A stretch of 56,248 nucleotides of DNA, filler included, from Dirinaria sp. TL-2023a (lineage: Eukaryota): the NCBI GenBank assembly GCA_051941275.1. It is 3 parts of 3 records of this genome, joined end to end, with 100 filler letters (N's around TTAATTAATTAA, not from the genome) between each part and the next. Parts side by side here need not be neighbours in the genome. Positions count along the whole stretch, not along the records: positions 18,811 to 37,491 come from JAVEBF010000372.1; 2 more parts are not named here. One strand, 5' to 3'. This document shows positions 24,423 to 45,914 of this stretch, in pieces. The position numbers and the translations under genes were made by a program. How positions within the stretch are numbered: position 1 is the first letter of the stretch; each line of letters starts with the position of its first letter. The notes beneath the pieces are model-generated. The model was not told the DNA's origin, ran no database searches, and saw nothing but the letters and a program-made list of their open reading frames with translations.

Positions 24423-26132
<1,710 letters not shown>

Positions 26133-26857
26133 TCAAGAGCACTTGCGTTTGACAATTGGGATATGTGAAGTTGTAGATACTTGAGTGAGTAAATAATAAT
26201 GGGCCGGTCAAGTTTTCAATGTTGAAACTCAATTGGTTCTTGTCGGTAAACCCTACGGGATGCGGGGCATTGCATCAGACCCTTTCCTTTTTTTTTTTTT
26301 TTTTTCCAACCTTGCAACTCCGGACCTCCACGGTTCGGGGGAAAAAAACCCTTGGAAAGAAAACTGCTTCTAGATACTAAGTAGGGTGAAAGCTCGATTT
26401 AGCGGGTACCAAGATGTTCGCAATCAGTCCGCAGAGTCAATCCACAAGAGATGTACGATTTTATTCAGATACACTGAATTCCACTAAGTCTCCCATGCCC
26501 TAACCCGGAGTACTCGTACAAACATCGGGCAGTTCCGATAGTGCATATTACCCGAGAATTATGAGTCAACCAAGGTCAGGTCACTCATAGACAGCTTGAT
26601 GGTAGGTGATTCCTAGCATCCCGTTACGAGATGACATCTCCATATCTGTTGAGCATGCAATTTCGTAAACATGCCAACCACGGCGCAGATTTAGGCGAAG
26701 CCTTTAGTCGGCTAGAAGGGCCGCCCTAGGAGCTCGGTCCGTCGGTCCTCAATTTACTGTACCTACCAACGTCATAGCCAGCAAGCTCATGGTCGTGGCT
26801 ACGCTAAATACAGTAGGATTGTATGGGGGCAAGAACGAGATTGACTCTCTATCTTGA

Positions 26858-28123
26858 TTAGGAAGACCAGACAGTGACTCGACCATCAACACCACTCGCT
26901 GCATATCGTCAGTGTTCTGTTCAAGCTGCCTAACCAATTTTGTGCCAGACTCACTACTGAACTTCTTAACTATTCCCCCTTCGGCTTCGTCGTAAACCCG
27001 TATCGTGGATATCGTGTTCTGATGAACGGTCTTCAATTGCGTGTCGTCTTTCGTCTTTCCTTTGAGGTCCATTTGCCGGAACATGTTGAGCGCAGATTCC
27101 TCGCGCACGTTGCCCATGCCGGGCCTGCCCTTTGATTCCATGGAGCCTACTATTTGCCAGCCCTGCTCGTTGCCGCGAAGTCTATAGGCTTCACAGTCCT
27201 GTCCAAATTGGTCAGTCAGGAGTTGACGGAGCTCTGGCTCTACACTTACATATCCCGCGGCAATGATCTCGCTCTCTCCATTCCAGATCAAACTCAGGAA
27301 TGGCAGAAGCTGTGTACTGATGCTCACAATCGCATTTGGTGGTTGTTCGGGAGCACTTGGGTAGACAACGGTGATGCTGCTATCGTGCGCTGTAAAGGCC
27401 AAGGCATTACCGCTTGGCGAAAAAGCGCAGCTGTGAACCCATCCAGCCGAATTATTCAAGTACTCTCCGCAGACAGTGTTAAATGGGAGCCTTTCGCCCC
27501 ACACGCTAGCTTCGGGTCGAGCATCAACGCCTTTGATGAAACTGGAGAAAACCCTAGCATGTGCGTCTGTAGATCCGGCCGCCAATAGCACGGAATTTGG
27601 ATGCCATGACACCGTGGTGATTGTGCTCCGTATCGGCTTCTTCAGATGCTTTGATACCCACCAATCGTTCTCCTCCTCGAAATAGCAAACGGCAATGACG
27701 CGAGCGCCTGAGCCAACCGCAAATTTGAGTTCAGAAGGCGACCAGCGGACAAATGTTGCTGCGCGGTTGATTCGAAGAAGGACTAGAGTAGGCTTCCAGC
27801 CAGAGGGTGAAGGTTCCCAGACATAGGCATTGCGATCTATACGTTTCAATCAGAATTGCTCTTCAAAGGGTGGGATTGCCGCTTTCCAAGGGGGTCTGAC
27901 CTTGAGAACAGGTAACAATTCTCCCGGTGTTTGGAGCAATATCTACGCCTGTCACGGTCTTGTCATGACCCTTGAGCTCATCTTTGAGAGTGAATTTATT
28001 GCCTGACCGGCCATACAGCTCGACGTTGTTGTCTCGTGCTACAGCCAAAGTGTGCCTGTCGGCTGAGAAAGAGTGATCGGCAATGGGATGGTGGAAAAGG
28101 TGATGAACTTCCGGACCGGACAT
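26858..28123 (-). CDS. arc40: Arp2/3 complex subunit ARPC1/Arc40 (WD40), 4 exons
   Basis: '[24 protein letters not shown]', 'LVLLRINRAATFVRWSP', 'WWVSKHLKKPIRST', 'TVHQNTI'. Final exon 'SGVDGRVTVWSS*'. Confidence 0.95.
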
Positions 28124-28530
28124 GCTCTATTGCAGCGATAGGAGTTGCTCTCTACTACCGCGCTGTGCTGGAGGGGACTGCGGTGATTGGGGGTCTCCTA
28201 GAAGTAAGGTGCTGGAGGAATCGGAGCGGAGAGTTGCTCCGATTGGGTTAGGCATAAATCGGCTGATCTTCGGGTATACGATCGCGAGAACCAGCATATG
28301 TCACCGCGGAGACCCGCCTAGGTCGTACCTCTGAGGTTTGCCATAGTGCACGGGTCTTGGTCGTATTTGCTCCTGCAAAGCTGACATATTATGGAAGCAG
28401 CATTAATCAGCCTTTTGTAAGTCTGAAATAGGTATTCTTCAGGCCAAAGAATCCATTACGTCCAAGAGAGATTTCGCTGGCTGAAAAGACGCTACTCGGT
28501 CACTTCCACGTTTGAGATACCACTCCAAAT

Positions 28531-30197
28531 ATGGCTTCTCAGGTTGTGGTAGTTGATTCGTCTGCCCGTCGAGTCGTCGTTAAGACCACACCTGGGAAGC
28601 ACCTCAGCGAGATATTGCACGAAGCCTGTAGCAAATGGGGCAAGGACGCCTCTCTTCATGGGTTGAAGTAAGCTAGCAAAGCTTGGAGCGACTTACTTTT
28701 GATGTACGCACGTGCATAGACATTCAACTAAGTGTTACATATCACAGGCATAATAACAAGACCCTCGACCTTTCGAACCCGATCAGGTTGTCTGGCCTTT
28801 CATCGGGCGCAAGACTTGAACTCATAAAGATTTCGAAGTCTCCCTCTGTCGTGTCCGTAGCTCTACAGGTGCCGGAATCAGACGGCCAAGGAATCCCGAA
28901 CAATCGTATGACGGATAAATTCCCAAGTACCACATCCTTATGGCAGATCCTACGCAAATTCGAATCGGGCGCTGCAGGAGGCTTAGGGCTACATAAGAAT
29001 TTTACGGCTCGTAGCACAGCACAGATTGCTAACGGGAACACGGGGTCTGGGAGACTTTACTACGAAACGCCGGTTTTGAACTACATGGGTAGGGAAGTTT
29101 CCGACTTCGTCGGATTGCAGCAGTCGCTTGGCCAGCTGGGCTTCACTGGCGGTAATACCCTCCTGCGACTTACATTCCGTGCCACGCAAGACCCTCTCGA
29201 AACCACAATGGAAGATATCGAACGATATTTCAAGAGCGTGGAGGGACATGATGATAGCAGCAGAGGTGCCCATGCGGCCAGTGTGGGCACCGGCGGCTCA
29301 GTATCAGATACCGCTCAGCCAGCTTTGACGGAAGAGGAGGCTGGAGCCAAATCACCTGCTGAACCGCCCTCGCCATTACCACCACCGACAGAACCACTTT
29401 CTCCTGCTCGTAGCGAAGACCTTATTGCCAGTTCGTCGATCTCTGGCTCAAACGGCAGGCAAACAGAGGCCGGCACTCCTTTAGCTTCCACTCCAAGCAC
29501 CGCCTCTGAACACACAGTGACGGGCCCAGGCGGACGACTCATGGCCATCTACGCTCCATCATCGTCAACAGTTCCTCGTGCCGCTCAGCAAGCCTATAAC
29601 GAGGCCGACTACGTGCCTACGATTGCACACGCAAAGATGCACCAGAAACGACTTCAAAATGGCACCCACAATCAACGTCTAGCTTCTTATGCTGAAGACG
29701 ACAACAAGCAAAAAGCTAGGGCACAGAGACTGACTGAGATCAAGGAGCTCAAATTGAAAGTCAGATTCCCGGATCAGCAAACGATATGGGTAGGTTTCAA
29801 TGATCTTGACACAGCAACAACCCTGTACGATTGGGCCCGAAAAGTGCTGGTCCATGAAGGAGCACCATTCGTGCTGAAATACTCGACCGCAAAAGGACCC
29901 CAGGAAGTACCCGTGAATAGTACACAGCGACTGATAGCGGGACTGGGCATGGTTGGGCCCTTGCTCGTAAACTTTGTCTGGGCCGAAGGAGCTGATCCAG
30001 AAGCGCGGAGCTCATCCGTGCTGAAACCGGAGTATGCGACGAAAGCGAAAGAGATAGAGGTCCCCGAGATTCCGGGGCAAGACGTTGCAGAGGAAAACCC
30101 AGCCCCCAGTACATCGTCCGAGAATGCTAGGCCAAGCGGTGGAGGCAGCAAAGGTGGTATACCAAAGTGGCTTCAAAAGGGTCTGCGGAAGAAATGA
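28531..30197 (+). CDS. TUG/ASPSCR1-like UBX domain protein (Ubx4-like), 2 exons
   Basis: ATG 28531 'MASQVVVVDSSARRVVVKTTPGK...EACSK', intron ~28668-28748, 'LDLSNPIRLSGLSSGARLEL' (TUG-UBL), UBX 'KVRFPDQ' and C-terminal 'PKWL'. Confidence 0.85.
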
Positions 30198-30433
30198 GGG
30201 AATGACGATTCAAAGGTTCGATGGGATGCATTACGAAAGCGATAGCCTTGTAAACTAGACGATTCAATCATAAGCAGCATGGCGGTACAGGGATGGCTTA
30301 GAGCGCGGCGGGGCATAGCGAGGTGGGTGATAAGGTAGTTAATAGTGTTACCAGCAGCAGCAGCAGCATGGGAAAAAAAGCCCGTATCATCTTAAATTGC
30401 AGGCTACCGTATCATTTCTTACGTCCTCCATCA

Positions 30434-31086
30434 TCAGTGTCCCGCCCTCCTGGCCTCCGCAATGACACCCTGCAACTCATCCACCTTTCTCTTCGCCCGA
30501 CCGAAAGTCCCGAGCTAAATAAATAATCACAATCAGCCAGCCCACTCTTGCACCACAGAACCCCATACTCAAACACCCCAAACCAAAAAAAAAAGGACAG
30601 AAAAAAATAACAGATACACATACCCGCTTCTTGGCCAACTTGCGCGCCCGCTTATCCTTGCTATTCCGCAAAAGCTCGATCACACGTCGCTCGTAGGGGG
30701 CCAATCTACATCCATCCACCCCTTTTAGCCAAATTATCCAGCTTACGCAGGCAACAGGGGCGGGTGTGGTCGGGAGGAGAGAAAGGGGAGGAAAAGCGAC
30801 CGCGCACCCCGAAACCTCCTTGACAATCTCCCTCACAAACGCGGTCCTCTTGCTCAGATGGCCCTTGGTGCGCGAGATGCGCGGTTTGAATTCGCGCGGG
30901 GTGACTTTCTATATATTTCCCCAAAAATTCTCGAATCAGCGAATATGCTCTTCGCGGTTTTCCCTGGGGTTTTGGAGGGGGAATTGTTTTTGGCGAGGGA
31001 GGGAAGGAAGATGCCAGGGGAGGGGGGAGACTTACGTGGCCGGAATTGAGACCTCGAGCGAGGCCGCTCTTTTCTTTCGGCGCCAT
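30434..31086 (-). CDS. rpl36: 60S ribosomal protein L36 (eL36), 4 exons
   Basis: Spliced reading: [104 protein letters not shown]. Confidence 0.96.
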
Positions 31087-31579
31087 ACTTTTCTTTCTTC
31101 TCTTTGTGATGTGCGCGAGAAGAGGAGTGGAGAGGTGGACGGTGGATGGGGATGGGTTTGAGGTGCGGGTTTTTGGTAGTGCGGCTTGGCGGAGATGGGG
31201 CGCTAGTGGAAGCGAGGAAGCAAGCCTCAGAGGAAAAGCCCCGGTATTCGCACTGAAGTATGATTACATAAGGTACCTTAGTTTCATTTAGTCGAGGGAA
31301 GTTGCTCCTATTTCGCTATTCATAGAATTATGAAGGTTGGACTCGGGGATTTATAAATACTTTTTTTGGCGGTATACGGAGCTTCATCATCTTCTTCGTG
31401 ACAGTTATCTACAATATGCTTTCGCAGGGACACTCCTCCTTCAAGCCGATACACGATACGCAGAGCCAATGCAATCTTGCAAAAAGCAATGGAAGTTTTT
31501 CAATAACACAGAAGCGCCATAGCCAGTTGTGAAATCCGCATGTTCGTCATACACCTGATCATACACCAACGTTGCAAGC

Positions 31580-32823
31580 TCATTCAATGCGTGGAGGGCT
31601 TCTGCTCTTGGAAGCGTCTTTCCCTGGCGTTCCAGCTGGATAAGGACTTGCACTCCTTCTGCTTCTGTTAGTGCCTTTGAGGCGGTGCTGCTCCTGAATC
31701 GGAAGCAGAAGACTCACGATCTCCGTCTCTCGCCTTCCTTTCGGAAATCTTCGATCACTTTCAACATCTCCTTCCTGCCAGAAAAGGCATTGAGGAGCCT
31801 GCTGCCCATGCTCATGTTAATCTTCTCCTTCGAATGAGCCTGAAGCAGTCGTCTAAGCAGCAGGTGTTTCATTTCGATACAGACATAAACGCCGCAATCA
31901 CTCGAGTTGGTCTGCTGCGGCGAATCTTCGAGGTTAATAAATCGGAGGGGTCGGCCGAGTAGCTGACTGATTTTGTTGCTCGCATGTTGGGCATCGTGAA
32001 AATTGGCAGCGCTTAATGAATCATAATGGAAGGAGACGCCATCGACCACGCTAACAAGGAGTAATGACCAATGAGAACCACCCTCAGCCTGTTCGACATT
32101 GCGACAGTCATTGATGGGTAAAAAGATATGGGTCGTGCGGGAGAAGTCGGGCAGAGCATCCTTCAGCGTCGAAGGATCTGGGGTCTGCGTGAGCAAAAAT
32201 GACATGGATGGTCGTAAAAGCACGATATGGGAATTTCTGTATTGGGTGAGATATTCGCGCTCGAGATACCTAACCAAAGCGGTCGGAAAACCCTTAGACT
32301 GGCTTCCTAGCTTGCAAATCCGCGTAGGAGGGGAAACCCAACACTTACTCTTCCCAGAACGAAATGCACTGTTGACAAAGTCTTAGTCGCACAGCGGGGA
32401 GTTGACGATAGAACCTTGACTTACATTGTCGGTCAACCAATCATCCTTGAGAGTGTCAATATCTTCTTTAGTCACTAAAGGGCCATCAGTTGCAATATTC
32501 TGCGAACAATGGATACTGACATACACCGTACATCATGGTCTGCGGGATTGTTAGCAACGGAACGGCCACAGGTTGAAAGTTCAACCTACAGCTCAAATAG
32601 GCATCATCCGGGCTCAGCTGAGTCCGAATCATGTTAGTCTCTAATTTCCAAAGGAGCAACAGATAATTCACAGAAGGAAAACCGATGATCACAGATTTCT
32701 GAAACCTACCTGATCACCGAAATGTTTGCTTACGCGGCCTCCGAAAGGATGAAAGCCGGAGTCACGCATGCTGCCCAACTTTGGGCTCGCACTTGGCGAT
32801 GACTTGTACTTCTTGAGCGGCAT
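31580..32823 (-). CDS. denA: NEDD8-specific protease (DenA/SENP8; C48 family), 7 exons including micro-exons
   Basis: 'LSPDDAYLS-YHDVR-LTKEDIDTLKDDWLTDN-CISFWEEYLERE', catalytic 'GGSHWSLL', 'YDS' and 'QQTNSSDCG', C-terminus 'SRSPPRIE*'. Start at 32823 or at the downstream ATG (MRDSG). Confidence 0.9.
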
Positions 32824-33139: not shown

Positions 33140-33187
33140 TGGCATGCCGGCGTTAGGCGGCAAATTCTAACCGCGGAATGCAGTGGC
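33140..33187 (+). repeat. Copy 1 of a ~48-bp dispersed direct repeat
   Basis: TGGCATGCCGGCGTTAGGCGGCAAATTCTAACCGCGGAATGCAGTGGC matches 34508-34554 at 42/48 positions by manual alignment. Confidence 0.85.
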
Positions 33188-33399: not shown

Positions 33400-34369
33400 T
33401 CATCTAGCTGGGTTTGGGGGTCGTTCGTTTGCAGTACGACAGACGTTTTGAAATGTCTCGAACAAGCCCGGAACCTTGTTAATCCTTGTGATCGCTGCAC
33501 CCGCGATACCTGCCAATTGGATACCGCCCAGAGCCGATCCGCCCATGGCTGCGCTTTGACACCAAGCGAAGAGGCTGCCAGCCTTGACAGCTCCCATCGA
33601 GCCTTGCCAAGCTGCAGCAGCAGAGCCAGCCGCTGGTCCCGCCGCAGTAAAGCCTACAGCGCCAAGTATTGGCACCGCGAAGAATGATACAGCGGAAAGA
33701 GTGAGGCCCGCTGCTTGAATACCAGTGCGGTATGGATGGGCTTTAGCGTAGTTTTTCACCCCTTGGAGGAAGCTAGGGTCTTGCGCTTGAACTGCAGCAT
33801 GTTAGTAACTTTTAATGTTTCTTTTCTCAATGTCATGAAGTACCTTTCTTCTCCAACTCTTGAGAGAATTCCTCACTCCAACCCGAATAAATGGCCAAAG
33901 AGTTACGCAGGTCTTTAGCGTTATCAGGGAAATCTGCATTCCTGAAGCGATGTTGTACCTCCTCGTCGGTCAATTCTTCGAAGGGTTTTTTGCCAGATAG
34001 GATCTCGTAAAGAAGACTAGCCATTGCAAATCGCTCGGCTCTTCTCACCTGATCATTGTGATCAAGTTCACGGATGGTCGCTGGCGGTATCTGAAATCGA
34101 GCGGGGTAAACGTCGCCTTGGAGTGCTGGCATCGAGAGGAGCTTGATAGATCCGTCTAAGGTGCCGATGAAGTCCCACGACCGCAGAGAGTCGTGCATAA
34201 CTTTGAAATACTCAATTATCTTGCCAACCCATTGAAGTCGTATCTCGTCCCCTATCTCCGGGCAGTCTTTTATGTCAAAGAGTGCAGGGCTTCCTGGCCG
34301 TTCAGCGTCCCCCTCATGATTCTCAGCCTTATTCACCCGGATTCGGCAGGTAAGCTGGGAGGGCGCCAT
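33400..34369 (-). CDS. Degenerate kinase C-lobe fused to an ISG12/Ifi-6-16-like Gly/Ala-rich membrane domain, 2 exons
   Basis: ATG 34369. A 52-nt intron at 33792-33843 (GTACTT..CTAAC..CAG) joins the two ORFs in frame (ELEKK-VQAQDPSFLQGVKNY). Kinase-like 'RFAMASLLYEILSGKKPF'; ISG12-like 'AVGFTAAGPAAGSAAAAWQ...AGSLFAWCQSAAMGG'. Confidence 0.75.
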
Positions 34370-34507
34370 CCCACTTGAGTCCCCAAGATCGTTTACTAGA
34401 AAGCTGATCAAGTACCGACTAAGAAGTGTATCACCACAAATGTAGATACTGGTTGGCTTGGTGAAGCTTCCTCACTTGAGGTTGGGGCACATTTTTGTTT
34501 GCTTCGC

Positions 34508-34554
34508 TGGCATGCAGGCATCAGGCGGCAATTCTAGCCACGGAATGCAGTGGC
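34508..34554 (+). repeat. Copy 2 of the ~48-bp dispersed direct repeat
   Basis: TGGCATGCAGGCATCAGGCGGCAATTCTAGCCACGGAATGCAGTGGC. Confidence 0.85.
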
Positions 34555-36306: not shown

Positions 36307-37491
36307 TCATCGTGGATGCGCTTGCATCATCTGCACCGCCCCCAATATCTGGGTCAGCATGTTCCTCTGCTGCTTCTGCTCCTTCTCCATACGTTCAATA
36401 CGCGAAAGCAGCATCTGGCCATTTTGAGCGCGCAATGGTGCCTGATGCGCCGCCGCCGTGGTGGTATTGAGTTGTGCTCCGCCATAGTTGGTTGCATGCG
36501 AAGCAAAGCCTCCCATATGCCCTGCCAAAGCCGGCATCAGCACCGTCGGGTCCGACGCGGCGGATGGCTGGATCTGCAGTGACGCGCGCTGCTGTTGTGG
36601 AAGATTGGTGGTAGAAACCTGGGACGAAAACAACGAGTTGTCTTCCTCCGTCGGCGGCGCAAAATCGAAGCCGGAGGACGTGCTGCTGAATGTCTGGCTA
36701 TGCTGAAGCCGAGTGGGCGCCGATTCATGTCTTGCCAGGGAAGCGTTGGTTTGCTGGCTGGTCGCCATCATTGACTGCTGGTACGTCTGGCTGGGTGGAT
36801 AGCCCGCCGACGCCGGTCGCGGGTTCAGCGATGGAGGCGCATTATGAGGAACTGGAAGCTGTTGATCGAGGGCCTGTTGTTCGGTGGGCGGTTTCCGTCT
36901 CCGCCGTTTATTGCCGTTCGACTTGTCGTCGCTGTCCGGTATCCATTCCCACCTGCCACCAGGGGTAGGTCCGGGGTAGGCGCCGTTGGGGGTTTCCAGC
37001 GCCTGATCCTGCTGCACGTTCGACGTCGCCTGTTCCGCCATCTCTTTCTGCGCCTTGTACTTCTTCCTCGCGTTGTAGATGTCTCGGGTCAGCACCTTGA
37101 TGTCGGGCCAAATCTTCCTCAACTCCTCCAACGTCTCTCCCGGGGTATTTCCCGCCTCCGTCATCTCGTTGACCTTTTGGCTTTGCGCCTCGGTGAGCCG
37201 CCGCAGGGTCGGGTGCACGCTCAGGTCGTCGGACGGGGAATGGTTATGCTCGGGGTTATCCGTGGTCACCCTCCAAACGCCATCCTTTCGGACCACGGCG
37301 ACCATCTTGAACGGGCAGCCCAGCAGGCGGCTGTCACTGCGCTTCCGTTTCCGCTGCTCTGGCGTGAGGTTCCGGCGGTTCTCGTACACGCCTCCGCGGT
37401 CACACTTGAGCCACAGCCGGTTGAAGCGCGACCGGGCGATGACGATGGCATAGCCTTGCCTAGCGGCCCAGTCCTTGGCGTGCTGCAGCAG
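36307..37491 (-). CDS. FAR1/Mutator-transposase-derived Zn-binding DNA-binding protein, 5'-truncated by the contig end
   Basis: The frame is open up to the gap: 'LLQHAKDWAARQGYAIVIARS...LKCDRGG...SRLLGCPFKM...W......EHNH', then 'TRDIYNARKK', a basic NLS (KRRRRK), a Q/S/P-rich region and a terminal coiled coil. No DDE domain is seen. Confidence 0.8.
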   Translation of the reverse strand: MLQHAKDWAARQGYAIVIARSRFNRLWLKCDRGGVYENRRNLTPEQRKRKRSDSRLLGCPFKMVAVVRKDGVWRVTTDNPEHNHSPSDDLSVHPTLRRLTEAQSQKVNEMTEAGNTPGETLEELRKIWPDIKVLTRDIYNARKKYKAQKEMAEQATSNVQQDQALETPNGAYPGPTPGGRWEWIPDSDDKSNGNKRRRRKPPTEQQALDQQLPVPHNAPPSLNPRPASAGYPPSQTYQQSMMATSQQTNASLARHESAPTRLQHSQTFSSTSSGFDFAPPTEEDNSLFSSQVSTTNLPQQQRASLQIQPSAASDPTVLMPALAGHMGGFASHATNYGGAQLNTTTAAAHQAPLRAQNGQMLLSRIERMEKEQKQQRNMLTQILGAVQMMQAHPR

Positions 37492-37591
37492 NNNNNNNNN
37501 NNNNNNNNNNNNNNNNNNNNNNNNNNNNNNNNNNNTTAATTAATTAANNNNNNNNNNNNNNNNNNNNNNNNNNNNNNNNNNNNNNNNNNNN
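37492..37591. other. Artificial contig-joining spacer
   Basis: N44-TTAATTAATTAA-N44. Confidence 0.97.
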
Positions 37592-42283: not shown

Positions 42284-45200
42284 TCAATTGAAGACCTTTT
42301 CTACAAGCCAACCTTGATCTCCCTCTCTTTTTTGCAGGACCTTTTGTGCGGGTAGAGGCCACCTCCGGCCTCCTTTGTCGCCAACAAGCTCTGGGACAAT
42401 CCAGCATTCTCTCATGCCACTACCGACTTCCACAATCTTCCCAAGTGGTTTGCTATACTCCAGCAGCGGTGTGCCTTTCGCCAATCCTGCGATCTGTTTC
42501 CCAGTCACTGAACACAGCGCAGTCATTCGCGTTCTTGGCTTCTTTGCGCTTCCAATAGCGGAAATAGTACCGCGTTGCAAGTGAGAATAAACAAGGTATT
42601 CCGGGAGCTCTCTAGGCGATAACTGGGCGAGTACGGAGGACGGATGCACGAATACAGCGACGTCAACGAGATCTTCAGCTCGTCCCTGATGAGATTTGAA
42701 TAGCGTCAAATAAGGCACGTCTATTGCGCGTGTCGGTCGGCGTGGCATTTCTGGCGGAGAAGGAGCGACATCGGCCCGGATAGCTATCTGATCTAGAAAA
42801 GCTGCTGCAAGAAATTGCTGTAATGCTTTTACTTGTTTCGAAGACGGCTCGGAGAGGCGGCTTTCAAACCCTGAGGGCAGATAGGTTGGGTGGTTGTTGT
42901 ATACAATGGTGCTTAGCTGTCGACGTAAATTAGACGCCTCTTTCATTGCTTTTGAATTGAGAAACATGTCTTTGGCGAAGGCTTCAGGATCTCGTGAGTA
43001 TCCATAAGCGCAAATGGCAGAGAGAGCTTTAATACCATCACTGGTCTGAGAATTTTTGCTCAGTACTCGGTGAACCCTGTGATACTCTATTTTTCGCTGC
43101 TCTTGTGACACTTCCGCAAATCTGTCATTTGTACTATCTGTATTTTCCTGATCGCGATGTTGGGCTGACATATCAGTCTGGTTGTCTGGAATAAACAGCT
43201 CCGGCACTGTTAAGGCAGATACCATCGCAATAGTGTACGGCATGCAGCCATGTTGGTAGCCGATCACCAACATCTTTGCGTATCGAGGCGAGAGCGGATA
43301 AATAGATAGCTCACGTCCAACCGTTGTTATCTTTTCGTTGCTAGACAAAGCACCTAGGTAGGTGAGAAGCTTCTCCGCCTTCGCCAAGTCATTACGGTCT
43401 GGTGGGGTTGGGAATGGGAAGTTGAGCACATGCTGAAGATCCATGCTCTTCAGCTGTAGGGCCACTCCTTCAACGGGCATACGCAAAATCTCCGGCTCCG
43501 TGTGTTCCTTGAAATCTCGCTCGTAAACAGCAGAGGAGTAAAGTCGATAACAGTGCCCTGGGCCTGTTCTCCCAGCCCGTCCCGCACGCTGACTTGCGCT
43601 CGCTTTGCTAATCCAATCCACATCGAAACTCTGAACGCCGGTCGCTCTGTCATATCTTTTCTCTTTGGCGCGGCCGCAATCGAAAACGTAACGGATCCCT
43701 GGAATAGTAAGACTTGTCTCAGCCACATTGGTAGCAATCACGATGAGCCGGGAATCTTCCGGTGGAGGCTCGAAGACGCGAAGCTGATCCTTTGTCTGCA
43801 GCTGAGAATAGAGGGGCAGTACATGAACTCGAGACGATGCTGTGAAGGTGGAAGTCTGTTCGATATCAAATTCAGCTTCATCGTGCTCATCATCGACGCC
43901 TTCGTTCCTCGAAGCAGTACCATTAGAGCTCACGTCCCAGCTGTCTCTGCCTAGGTCTATATCTTCCGCCTCAAGCGGTGCTTCGCTTGCTACGATTGTA
44001 ACCTTTGGACCCGCGGCTTGACTTGACAGCGTACTTGCAAAGCTCTCTCTCAAACGCTTGGCCAAGTAAATTATTTCATTCTGCCCTGTCAAAAAGACTA
44101 ACATTCCGCCTGGTGGAAGCTTCTTGTGACCTTTGGAAACTTTATGGTAGATCTCGTCTAGATAGTCCCATTGGGTCCTTCGAGCAAAGTGGATCGTGAC
44201 TGGATGCTGTCGTCCTTCTACCTGTAGCAACGGAGGAGCGCCATTGCGGAAAAGAGTGGGGTTCTCGACGAAATCTGAAATTCTAAGCGTTGCAGACATA
44301 ATTATAAGCTTCAGAGGCGAGACTGTCTCATCATTTTTGCTCATAGAGTCTCGCAAGTCGACTATTCTACTGACCATTCCAATCAGTATGTCTGTGTTAG
44401 CGCTTCGCTCGTGCGCTTCATCTATGACAATCACTGAGTACTTCAGTAGAGCAAAGTCATTCGCAATTTCCCTTATGAGGATACCATCTGTCATGAATTT
44501 GATAGCTGTCTTCTCCTTTGCAGAACTTTCGAATCGAATCTGGTAGGACACTTTCTCATGGGGCCGGCCAAGCTCGTCGCTGACACGCTTTGCCATACTT
44601 ACAGCTGCGACCCTACGGGGCTGTGTTACCCCAATCATTCCGGGCGTAGGCCCTTTCGGATCACCAAAACCTGCTTCGTAGAGGAACTGGGGGACCTGCG
44701 TGGTTTTGCCACTACCAGTCGCGCCGCAGATGATTACTGAAGGGTTTTTAAAGACAGCTTCCATAATCTTCTGCTCTTCTGCAACTACAGGAAGCCGCAT
44801 GCGTAGATCTTGAAATACCTTTTCTCGCTCAACAGGGACACTGTAAGTTTTCCGCTGTGTGACGGCGGGGGTCGTGATCAACTCTTCGGGCAATGGATCC
44901 TGTTCAGGTTCCCTAGGCTTAAAGCTTGATGCTATCCTATGATGATCATCTGGCGCTGGTTGGGGATTGATAGCAGCGGGCTCGAATTCCAGAGCCTCAT
45001 TGGCTTGCTGTACTGCCCAAGTTTTAAAAGCTGATGACCTTGCGCAGGTGTGTATAGAAGCATTTACTCTTTCACTCCTATCCGACACACTGGTGTCTTC
45101 TTCTGCTCCCTCACTAGACACTGCGTCATTGCCTCCTGATGTGGTCATATCGGAGGTATCAGAGTCTGTCTGTGTTCCAGTCGACTGTATATCGATATTT

Positions 45201-45914
45201 TCTGGTTCACTTGAGTTGTTAGCTGTGCTAAAGCCACCCCATGAATCCCCATCATCATCGACAGGCCGTCTTCGAGGCTTTGGTAAACGTCTGCGTTTTT
45301 TCAAAGGTTCTAAACTAGTATCAGAGCCAAGTTTTCGCTTCAGGCCGCTTCCAAAAGCCACCAAGGGTACTTCGGGTACACGATCACGAGGCACGACCTC
45401 TGTCTCTGAAGAATCCAAAGACTCGAGTTTATCATCGGTCCTCTGATGCTGAGCTCCCGACAGAAGTTCTTGACTCTTGTGCTTGTGGGGGCCTGCGTCA
45501 CGCTTGTCAGAGGCCGTTATCAGGTTTTTATATTTAGATCCTTTCTTGGAACCCAGGTTTCGGGAGCTATGTAACAAGCTTGTGTCGTATTTTGCACTTT
45601 CTAATTTCTTAATCAGATTTAGAGTCTCTTCTTTTCGTATTTTTTTATCCTAGTATCCTTTAGTACATTCATATCTGTCATGGTAGTTAGATGAGGAATT
45701 GTACAATATATTTTGCAAGCTTTCTTTGCTTTTTGCTCAGGCTCTGAGGCTGTTCAGCAAGATGCGGATCGGTATTTATTTTCTTCTCTTCCCTCTCCTT
45801 TCGAGGAGCCGGCACAATTTCTGTCGCATCGGAAAAGCTACCAGGTTCCACTTTTCCATGTTCGGTTCGATGCCGCTTTTTGTGCTTCCGCTGACGCGGC
45901 ACAAAGATCACCAT
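42284..45914 (-). CDS. dhr1: DEAH-box RNA helicase Dhr1/Ecm16 (DHX37), 2 exons
   Basis: 'FVPRQRK' N-terminus, 'LPVVAEEQKIMEA', 'GATGSGKTTQVPQFLYEAG', 'DEAHER', 'SAT', 'TNVAETSLTIPG', 'QRAGRAGRTGPG'. Confidence 0.95.

Follow-up and report, generated by a model that had tools for sequence, protein, structure and literature searches.

What kind of protein is encoded on the minus strand between positions 33400 and 34369 of a 56,248-nt stretch of DNA (hereafter the window) from the lichen fungus Dirinaria sp. TL-2023a, where a fragment of a protein kinase fold appears to be joined to a membrane domain of the kind found in the interferon-induced proteins IFI6 and IFI27 of animals? The locus, which lies in the part of the window taken from record JAVEBF010000372.1, was found to be a spliced gene for a protein of 305 residues. 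Its N-terminal half is predicted to fold as the C-terminal lobe (C-lobe) of a protein kinase, with neither an N-terminal lobe (N-lobe) nor an intact set of catalytic residues, and its C-terminal half matches the ISG12 (Ifi-6-16) domain. The protein may act as a docking module anchored to an organelle membrane, a reading that is weighed below against several others.

The gene is represented in the window by two stop-to-stop open reading frames (ORFs) of the minus strand, 33833..34471 (212 aa) and 33400..33801 (133 aa), which a first-pass annotation had proposed to join in frame through a canonical 52-nt intron into a protein of about 305 residues. Exon 1 (34369-33844) and exon 2 (33791-33400) do join in frame, and the product is exactly 305 aa long: the exons translate into 175 and 129 residues, and the codon split between them (G at 33844 and TT at 33791-33790) supplies Val176. 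All of the peptide strings quoted in that annotation were found in the exon translations. The splice is real, as three independent lines of evidence agree. RNA contigs of a close relative skip exactly the predicted intron, 33792..33843 (read as CT..AC on the plus strand and GT..AG on the minus strand). These contigs, one from each of four RNA runs of a lichen metatranscriptome (one sample, one study), are 1048-1111 nt long and ~94-95% identical to the window, and hence represent a close relative and not the same strain. The NCBI protein database holds a 305-aa model with Pfam domain PF06140 (P0003, 'MAG: hypothetical protein Q9191_003266 [Dirinaria sp. TL-2023a]') that is 100% identical over exon 1 and has the sequence of the spliced product. 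Finally, an intron-sized tblastn gap is present at the same codon in 24 of 26 related loci from lichen metagenomes, with GT donors in 22 and GC donors in two; all 19 intact related loci, which encode proteins of 298-307 aa, have a phase-1 intron (47 nt in 15 of them, 53 nt in four). In L005-L008, splicing at the first AG after exon 1 (47 nt) would lead to an in-frame stop, whereas the frame is restored at the next AG (53 nt), and a shifted acceptor is apparently in use in this lineage.

The C-terminal half can be assigned, on the basis of profile matches, to the ISG12/Ifi-6-16 domain (residues ~197-277). Exon 2 scores 40.4 bits against the Pfam Ifi-6-16 profile (PF06140), for which the cut-off is 29.1 (expectation value (E) 2.8e-10, profile positions 5-81 of 84), and the likeness to the ISG12 motif of IFI6 and IFI27 that had been noticed in the first pass was thereby confirmed. 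All of 26 diverse full-length family members match the same profile, and the best-conserved part of the protein in their alignment is LG-x-x-GF-x-A-x-GP-x-AGS-x-AA-x-WQ-x-S-x-G-x-V-x-AGS-x-F-x-x-CQS-x-x-MGG. Low-complexity noise was considered as the source of the match and was ruled out by the score above a curated cut-off and by the presence of the motif, in register, in 26 of 26 members. The hydropathy profile contains one strong span centred on residues 206-227 (Kyte-Doolittle peak 2.0), followed by a Gly/Ala-rich, moderately hydrophobic stretch to residue ~277. Of the 85 residues from 196 to 280, 23 are Ala and 15 are Gly, and the sole charged residues are R197, K245 and R278; the C-terminal half also has a zipper-like spacing of small residues. 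Beyond the motif lies a C-terminal helix with the family-wide consensus L-x-E-x-F-x-x-V-x-R (26-member alignment). Complex prediction between the N-terminal half (residues 1-180) and the C-terminal tail (residues 274-305), in which alignments were not used, gave scores of 0.01 and 0.02 that carry no verdict either way.

The fold of the N-terminal half, as modelled, is that of a kinase C-lobe with the flavour of tyrosine kinase-like and tyrosine kinases (TKL/TK). AlphaFold2 (AF2) models of the full-length protein and of the N-terminal half alike have predicted local distance difference test scores (pLDDT) of ~90 over residues 30-175, and contain in order an alphaE-like helix (residues 41-55), a catalytic-loop relic HDSLRSWD (59-66), a short beta pair, a PPA relic of the APE motif (95-97), an alphaF-like helix (104-125) and alphaG-alphaI-like helices. 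In two Foldseek runs against PDB, the matches listed were all kinase chains or kinase-containing complexes (best E 2.9e-3 and 7.4e-4, probability 0.99-1.00). VIA-align was run against 48,161 representative chains, matches within 1 Z unit being counted as tied; the best 50 matches were all kinases in both runs, with no KIND entry among them in either. The pseudokinase of rat MLKL (6vbz) was nominally first (Z 10.2, root-mean-square deviation (rmsd) 2.9 and 140 aligned residues in the first run; Z 10.9, rmsd 6.2 and 141 aligned residues in the second), and mouse MLKL, AtMLKL3 and RIPK1 were also among the matches listed. The models do not demonstrate a specific kinship with MLKL, however, because WNK3 (Z 10.6), WNK1 (10.2), ALK (10.1) and Csk (10.0), along with mouse MLKL (4btf, 10.4), tied with it within one Z unit in the second run. 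In the ESM Atlas, Ascomycota Pkinase clusters come nearest (score 0.94, 189 shared features). Sequence matches are weak but exclusive: in a phmmer search of PDB sequences with exon 1, the best 60 of 91 matches were all protein kinases (E 0.087-0.17), and with a profile of 46 exon-1 sequences the best 60 of 98 matches were all kinases (from E 0.016). Thus, the kinase C-lobe that the first-pass annotation had read from a few landmark peptides is recovered throughout the listed fold matches.

Alignment with Aurora B places HDSLRSWDF on HRDIKPENL, YPARFQIPPA on the P+1/APE segment, and ERFAMASLLYEILSGKKPF on the DxWSxG alphaF helix. The catalytic-loop relic (H59-D-S-L-R-S-W-D66, aligned to HRDxKxxN) has Ser61 at the position of the catalytic Asp and a nearly invariant Arg63 at that of the Lys; Glu112 occupies the position of the alphaF Asp, and no DFG follows the beta pair in the exon 1 translation. 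No N-lobe (Gly-loop, VAIK Lys, alphaC Glu) is present in the window protein, which starts ~40 residues before the alphaE-like helix with a conserved start Met and a C-x-x-R-V strand, the start Met and the first 12 residues being conserved family-wide. A hidden upstream exon encoding an N-lobe was also considered and was ruled out by the conserved start Met and by the ends of the RNA contigs: there is no room for such an exon, because the contigs are only ~1.1 kb long and stop ~90 nt upstream of the ATG. Two-lobe kinase forms were absent from the matches listed at 161-686 aa (all of which were <=423 aa) and from those at 535-2000 aa, which is weak evidence in the same direction. Lacking an N-lobe, an ATP site and a DFG motif, and with Ser where the catalytic Asp would stand, the N-terminal half is predicted to be catalytically dead. 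The first-pass annotation had reported that N-lobe, DFG and HRD were all missing; the first two statements stand, but the third needs correction, as a degenerate relic of the catalytic loop is present with Ser at the position of the catalytic Asp.

The distribution of the two-domain family was examined at the protein level. Of 154 candidates from a protein search, 97 had E<=1e-3, and 13 of those 97 carry PF06140. A different species is named for each of 12 of the 13 (Dirinaria, Fulgogasparrea, Circinaria, Wetmoreana, two species of Psora, Stereocaulon, Flavoplaca, Letrouitia, Variospora, Lambiella and Diploschistes), and the thirteenth is unnamed; the 12 species are presumably all Lecanoromycetes. 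Most of the other matches among the 97 are exon-1-only ORFs of ~180-230 aa that result from prokaryote-style gene calling on metagenomes. When an exon-1 profile was searched against 1.84 billion cluster representatives, 443 proteins were found at E<=1e-3 and 210 at E<=1e-10, and the Ifi-6-16 domain is carried by 22 of the 24 scanned distant N-half homologues of at least 293 aa (above the cut-off in 19). Arranged by the classes to which we take them to belong, and with a taxonomic breadth that rests on organism names supplied by databases, the named two-domain members include many genera of Lecanoromycetes; Peltula (Lichinomycetes); Lachnellula, Botrytis aclada, three Monilinia species, Cadophora, Halenospora, Mollisiaceae, Rhexocercosporidium and Claussenomyces (Leotiomycetes); Glutinoglossum and Geoglossum (Geoglossomycetes); Piedraia (Dothideomycetes); and Lasiosphaeria and Monosporascus (Sordariomycetes), as well as Cirrosporium. 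Some members bear the UniRef label 'Protein kinase domain-containing protein'. The ESM Atlas contains a 107-member Ascomycota cluster of ~308 aa, with PF06140 in 75% of its members. Because of these named members and this cluster, the fusion of a kinase lobe with an ISG12 domain appears to be old and stable within Pezizomycotina, its architecture being apparently kept across at least five classes.

Three longer models were noted in passing. That of Trapelia coarctata (P0308, 772 aa) has two Ifi-6-16 stretches, that of Cudoniella (P0309, 632 aa) combines a basic helix-loop-helix (bHLH) domain with Ifi-6-16, and that of Stromatinia cepivora (P0310, 622 aa) combines an OTT_1508-like deaminase with a family copy lacking 25 residues of the ISG12 motif. 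All are probably merged gene models or degraded copies and not true fusions.

The ratio of nonsynonymous to synonymous substitution rates (dN/dS) was calculated by the Nei-Gojobori method on spliced coding sequences, with dS values of 0.7-1.3, partly saturated, in the deep comparisons. It was 0.24 for the window against lineage A, 0.28 against lineage B, 0.24 against lineage C, and 0.29 for lineage A against lineage B. The between-lineage values are similar for both halves of the protein (0.24-0.31), with a range of 0.16-0.34 for the N-terminal half alone. Comparison of the window with the RNA contig of its relative, for which 40 of 55 differences were listed, gave 36 coding differences (20 synonymous and 16 non-synonymous), of which 15 synonymous and five non-synonymous fall in the N-terminal half. 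These comparisons point to moderate purifying selection with no signature of an arms race. For a gene that had been put forward as a candidate effector of cell death or innate immunity, values of ~0.25 between lineages thus offer no sign of diversification, although broken copies do occur in some lineages.

The broken copies are of several kinds. L020:6001-6879 and L021:6001-6879, from two different assemblies, have an 80-nt frame-breaking deletion in exon 1, and their flanks match those of the intact loci L011 (6001-6962) and L017, which points to a null allele or to recent loss of the gene within a single lineage of lichen fungi. In L022:4465-5421 and L023:6001-6957, two nucleotides are deleted, a TGA stands in frame at the Trp of IRPWDF, and the intron has a GC donor. 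The two assemblies that contain these degraded copies also have an intact one (L011, L010), which is explained either by a paralogous pseudogene or by the presence of a second fungus in the sample. In L026, unrelated sequence replaces the 5' half of exon 1. L024 is distinguished from L003 by an additional C in a C-run, possibly an assembly error, and L025 is cut by a contig end.

What might a protein of this design do? The role favoured here, by analogy and with about an even chance of being correct, is that of a membrane-anchored docking or sequestering module, KIND-like in its workings, on an organelle membrane. The ISG12 domain would insert into an internal membrane, either of the endoplasmic reticulum (ER) or the outer membrane of mitochondria, as for IFI6 and IFI27, and would serve as a C-terminal anchor for the dead kinase lobe. 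The lobe would face the cytosol, because the N-terminus does not resemble a signal peptide and because Lys, His and Arg stand just before the first hydrophobic span. A partner would be recruited or sequestered at that membrane, and a plausible setting would be organelle-membrane homeostasis or a stress or cell-death threshold. Docking is favoured because a C-lobe without an N-lobe should be incapable of binding ATP in the canonical cleft, and because protein docking is the function of KIND, to our knowledge the only class of such lone C-lobes described.

Several results weigh against this reading. At the level of Pfam, the window protein has no match to Pkinase (PF00069) or KIND at E<=1, none of the 26 relatives matches KIND at E<=1, and Pkinase matches occur in only seven of the 26, all below threshold (best E 5.8e-4, 19.8 bits against a cut-off of 31.7). 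Because neither the window protein nor its relatives match KIND, the analogy with KIND is to be understood as functional and not as a family assignment. The ISG12 region has a pLDDT of ~30 in the AF2 model, too low for a reliable count of spans or a reliable topology. Within lineage C, pairwise dN/dS values rise to 0.47-0.84, on few changes (10-23), and in the comparison with the RNA contig the C-terminal half has five synonymous and 11 non-synonymous differences, although most of the latter fall outside the core motif, in the linker (codons 186 and 189) and the tail (codons 274-301). The gene is also dispensable in some lichen lineages, as the broken copies found there show.

Three other explanations have to be set beside docking on an organelle membrane. 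The ISG12 domain might do the work on its own, as a constitutive structural or chaperone-like factor of an organelle membrane, with the kinase lobe as a stabilising or targeting appendage that has no specific partner. The motif is indeed the part most strongly conserved across classes, with LG-xx-GF, GP-AGS-AA-WQ and AGS-F-CQS-MGG invariant or nearly so, and in a passage of a review IFI6 is said to prevent 'somehow' the rearrangement of ER membranes, aided by BiP (PMC8228428). We nevertheless consider this, the foremost rival to docking, unlikely, as the N-terminal half is also under apparent purifying selection by both of the comparisons given above, keeps surface-helix motifs family-wide (F114, A115, Y121, W164, F168), and has been retained in the fusion by 22 of the 24 distant full-length members. 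Still less probable is that the locus is a non-functional relic or an annotation artefact, in which a decaying kinase fragment has been joined by chance to a hydrophobic ORF. Loss of catalytic residues and the existence of broken copies would be expected of a relic, but the gene is spliced and represented in the RNA of a relative, 19 intact orthologous loci share its intron phase, the architecture is kept in at least five classes, and dN/dS is well under 1; we regard this explanation as very improbable indeed.

Nearer to the first-pass proposal is an executioner resembling MLKL, in which phosphorylation or partner binding would make the dead lobe a switch on the ISG12 domain, and the released or oligomerised domain would permeabilise a membrane in fungal regulated cell death, allorecognition or defence. 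The MLKL pseudokinase is the nominal top structural match of two independent models, and the gene is dispensable in some lineages and not syntenic, as is often the case for immune-type genes. ISG12a is reported, in an extract from one source, to destabilise mitochondrial membranes and to promote apoptosis (PMC5578005), and membrane-targeting effectors are presented in part of another as the core of fungal cell-death systems (PMC10197012). However, the structural match is shared with WNK3, WNK1, ALK and Csk; the order of domains is reversed with respect to MLKL, and no four-helix-bundle (4HB) or HeLo domain was detected by Pfam in the window protein or the 26 relatives; the protein has neither an N-lobe nor a nucleotide pocket to serve as a nucleotide or phospho switch; and no NLR, HET, HeLo or amyloid-motif neighbour is present in the window or in five representative loci. 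A dN/dS of ~0.25 and an invariant architecture are also a poor fit to arms-race evolution, and no assembly occurs twice among the best 120 of 165 matches. An executioner of this kind is therefore judged improbable. The same holds for a broader version in which ISG12-type membrane effectors would be an ancient opisthokont device of cell death or defence that later came under interferon control in vertebrates. In that version, which would parallel MLKL, an upstream kinase would bind or phosphorylate the lobe, and the lobe would gate an ISG12 domain able to oligomerise in a mitochondrial or ER membrane.

The surroundings of the gene were examined in the window and in related loci (coordinates of the gene's own features are collected in Table 1). 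On one side is a run of ordinary genes (25043-32382): an enolase-like ORF, a WD-repeat ARPC1-like ORF and ribosomal protein L36-like exons were read from their translations, and a TUG-UBL1 protein and a Ulp1-family protease (31714-32382) were confirmed by Pfam. A Pfam-scanned ORF of the FAR1/AFT DNA-binding type is found at 36307-37491 on the minus strand, its 5' end interrupted by a run of Ns at ~37492-37539 (15 X codons in translation), and a DEAH helicase ORF, named from its translation, is present in the window at 42284-45649. No NLR, HET, HeLo or gasdermin gene adjoins the gene in the window or in the five representative related loci, where several flanking ORFs have no Pfam match; the identifiable neighbours in the five loci are USP7-like, an RsmB-type methyltransferase, an AAA_11/12 helicase and DUF3723. 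In one lineage, the orthologue has among its neighbours a DUF3723 ORF and another whose TPR_12 match is weak and below threshold (L006:3599-4297 and L006:371-1912), and no NACHT or NB-ARC domain was seen there.

Gene order is not conserved, because tblastn searches with eight neighbour ORFs of the window found no match within 6 kb on either side of the gene in the 26 related loci; flanks are shared within one lineage only (L011, L017, L021 and L026). Two copies of a 48-nt direct repeat, spaced 1368 apart and with a 1-nt indel between them, bracket the transcription unit just outside the span of the RNA contigs. No further copies were found by blastn-short in the window or in the 26 related loci, and the repeat may be the scar of a duplication or may have a regulatory role. 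The base composition around the gene (30-38.5 kb) has no island-like anomaly. Thus, the impression of an accessory gene beside housekeeping genes is only partly borne out: the lack of shared neighbours in 26 loci, the broken copies and the flanking repeats speak for it, whereas broad conservation and constraint speak against it.

Table 1. Positions, in the window, of the kinase-lobe/ISG12 gene, its parts and the flanking repeat
Feature	Position	Strand	Details
Exon 1	33844..34369	-	ATG at 34369; 175 codons and first base of codon 176; kinase C-lobe-like domain
Intron, 52 nt, phase 1	33792..33843	-	GTACTT donor, TACTAAC branch box, CAG acceptor; GT..AG
Exon 2	33400..33791	-	Last two bases of codon 176, 129 codons and stop TGA at 33402-33400; encodes linker helix, ISG12 membrane domain and C-terminal helix
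Region coding for predicted kinase C-lobe-like fold	33845..34288	-	Residues ~28-175; AF2 models, fold searches, Aurora B profile alignment
Region coding for Ifi-6-16/ISG12 motif	33487..33696	-	Residues 208-277; Gly/Ala-rich, hydrophobic; PF06140, hydropathy
Region coding for conserved C-terminal helix	33424..33465	-	Residues 285-298; pLDDT 83-88 in full-length model
Span covered by spliced RNA contigs	~33300/33353 to 34445/34458	-	Contig limits, which do not map transcript ends
48-nt direct repeat, downstream copy	33140..33187		87.5% identity
48-nt direct repeat, upstream copy	34508..34554		87.5% identity

No description of a fungal kinase-lobe/ISG12 architecture was found in the literature searched. 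The single literature match for a fungal Ifi-6-16 domain is, in the part of the source concerned, a row of a secretome table for a different protein with Ferritin_2 and Ifi-6-16 domains (PMC10051545). The gene is not new, since its protein and Pfam domain are already in public databases; what is new in this uncharacterised family is that two known kinds of domain are combined, and the word 'undescribed' in the first-pass annotation applies to the literature searched but not to the NCBI protein database or Pfam. The family is of interest on several grounds. The mode of action of IFI6 and IFI27 on membranes is unclear, and the ISG12 domain is here permanently fused to a folded, presumably cytosolic kinase-lobe module, in genetically tractable ascomycetes as well as lichen fungi, which could provide an interferon-free system in which to study ISG12 domain function. 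The family also provides a case of a C-lobe-only kinase domain beyond KIND of the animal lineage, to which it does not belong by sequence, and if the cell-death reading were true it would add a new type of effector to fungal immunity. For the present, the family is well defined but uncharacterised, and not a demonstrated mechanism.

Among known systems, the fungal cell-death effectors of the HeLo/HELL (HET-S) type resemble the window protein in being fungal proteins with a membrane-targeting part, as outlined in a portion of one source (PMC10197012). The window protein differs from these in having no HeLo/HELL domain, amyloid motif or gasdermin domain by Pfam, and no adjoining NLR gene. With MLKL of animals and plants it has in common a dead kinase module and a membrane-active module in one polypeptide. 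MLKL, however, has a complete two-lobe pseudokinase at its C-terminus and a four-helix bundle at its N-terminus, whereas the window protein has a predicted C-lobe only, at its N-terminus, combined with an unrelated ISG12 domain and with no Pfam match to the four-helix bundle.

KIND, the original description of which is reportedly that of Ciccarelli et al. (2003), offers a parallel in design. According to extracts from two sources, it too is a kinase C-lobe without an N-lobe or catalytic residues that serves as a protein-interaction module (PMC2064798, PMC5928657). KIND domains are described from metazoa and related organisms, where they form part of large cytoskeletal or signalling proteins with many domains and are not fused to a membrane domain, whereas the lobe described here is fused to ISG12; the window protein shares with KIND the non-catalytic C-lobe-only state, but not the sequence, as no KIND match was obtained at E<=1.

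The ISG12 family (FAM14), which is said to have been defined by Parker and Porter (2004), shares with the window protein a motif of ~80 aa that is Gly/Ala-rich, hydrophobic and above the Pfam cut-off. In excerpts from the literature, IFI6 is placed at ER membranes (PMC8228428) and ISG12a/IFI27 at mitochondria (PMC5578005), and both are linked to the control of apoptosis. Whereas the animal members are interferon-induced and consist of little more than the motif, the motif of the window protein, which has 305 residues, lies at the C-terminal end behind a folded kinase-lobe domain of ~175 aa, in a fungus that has no interferon system.

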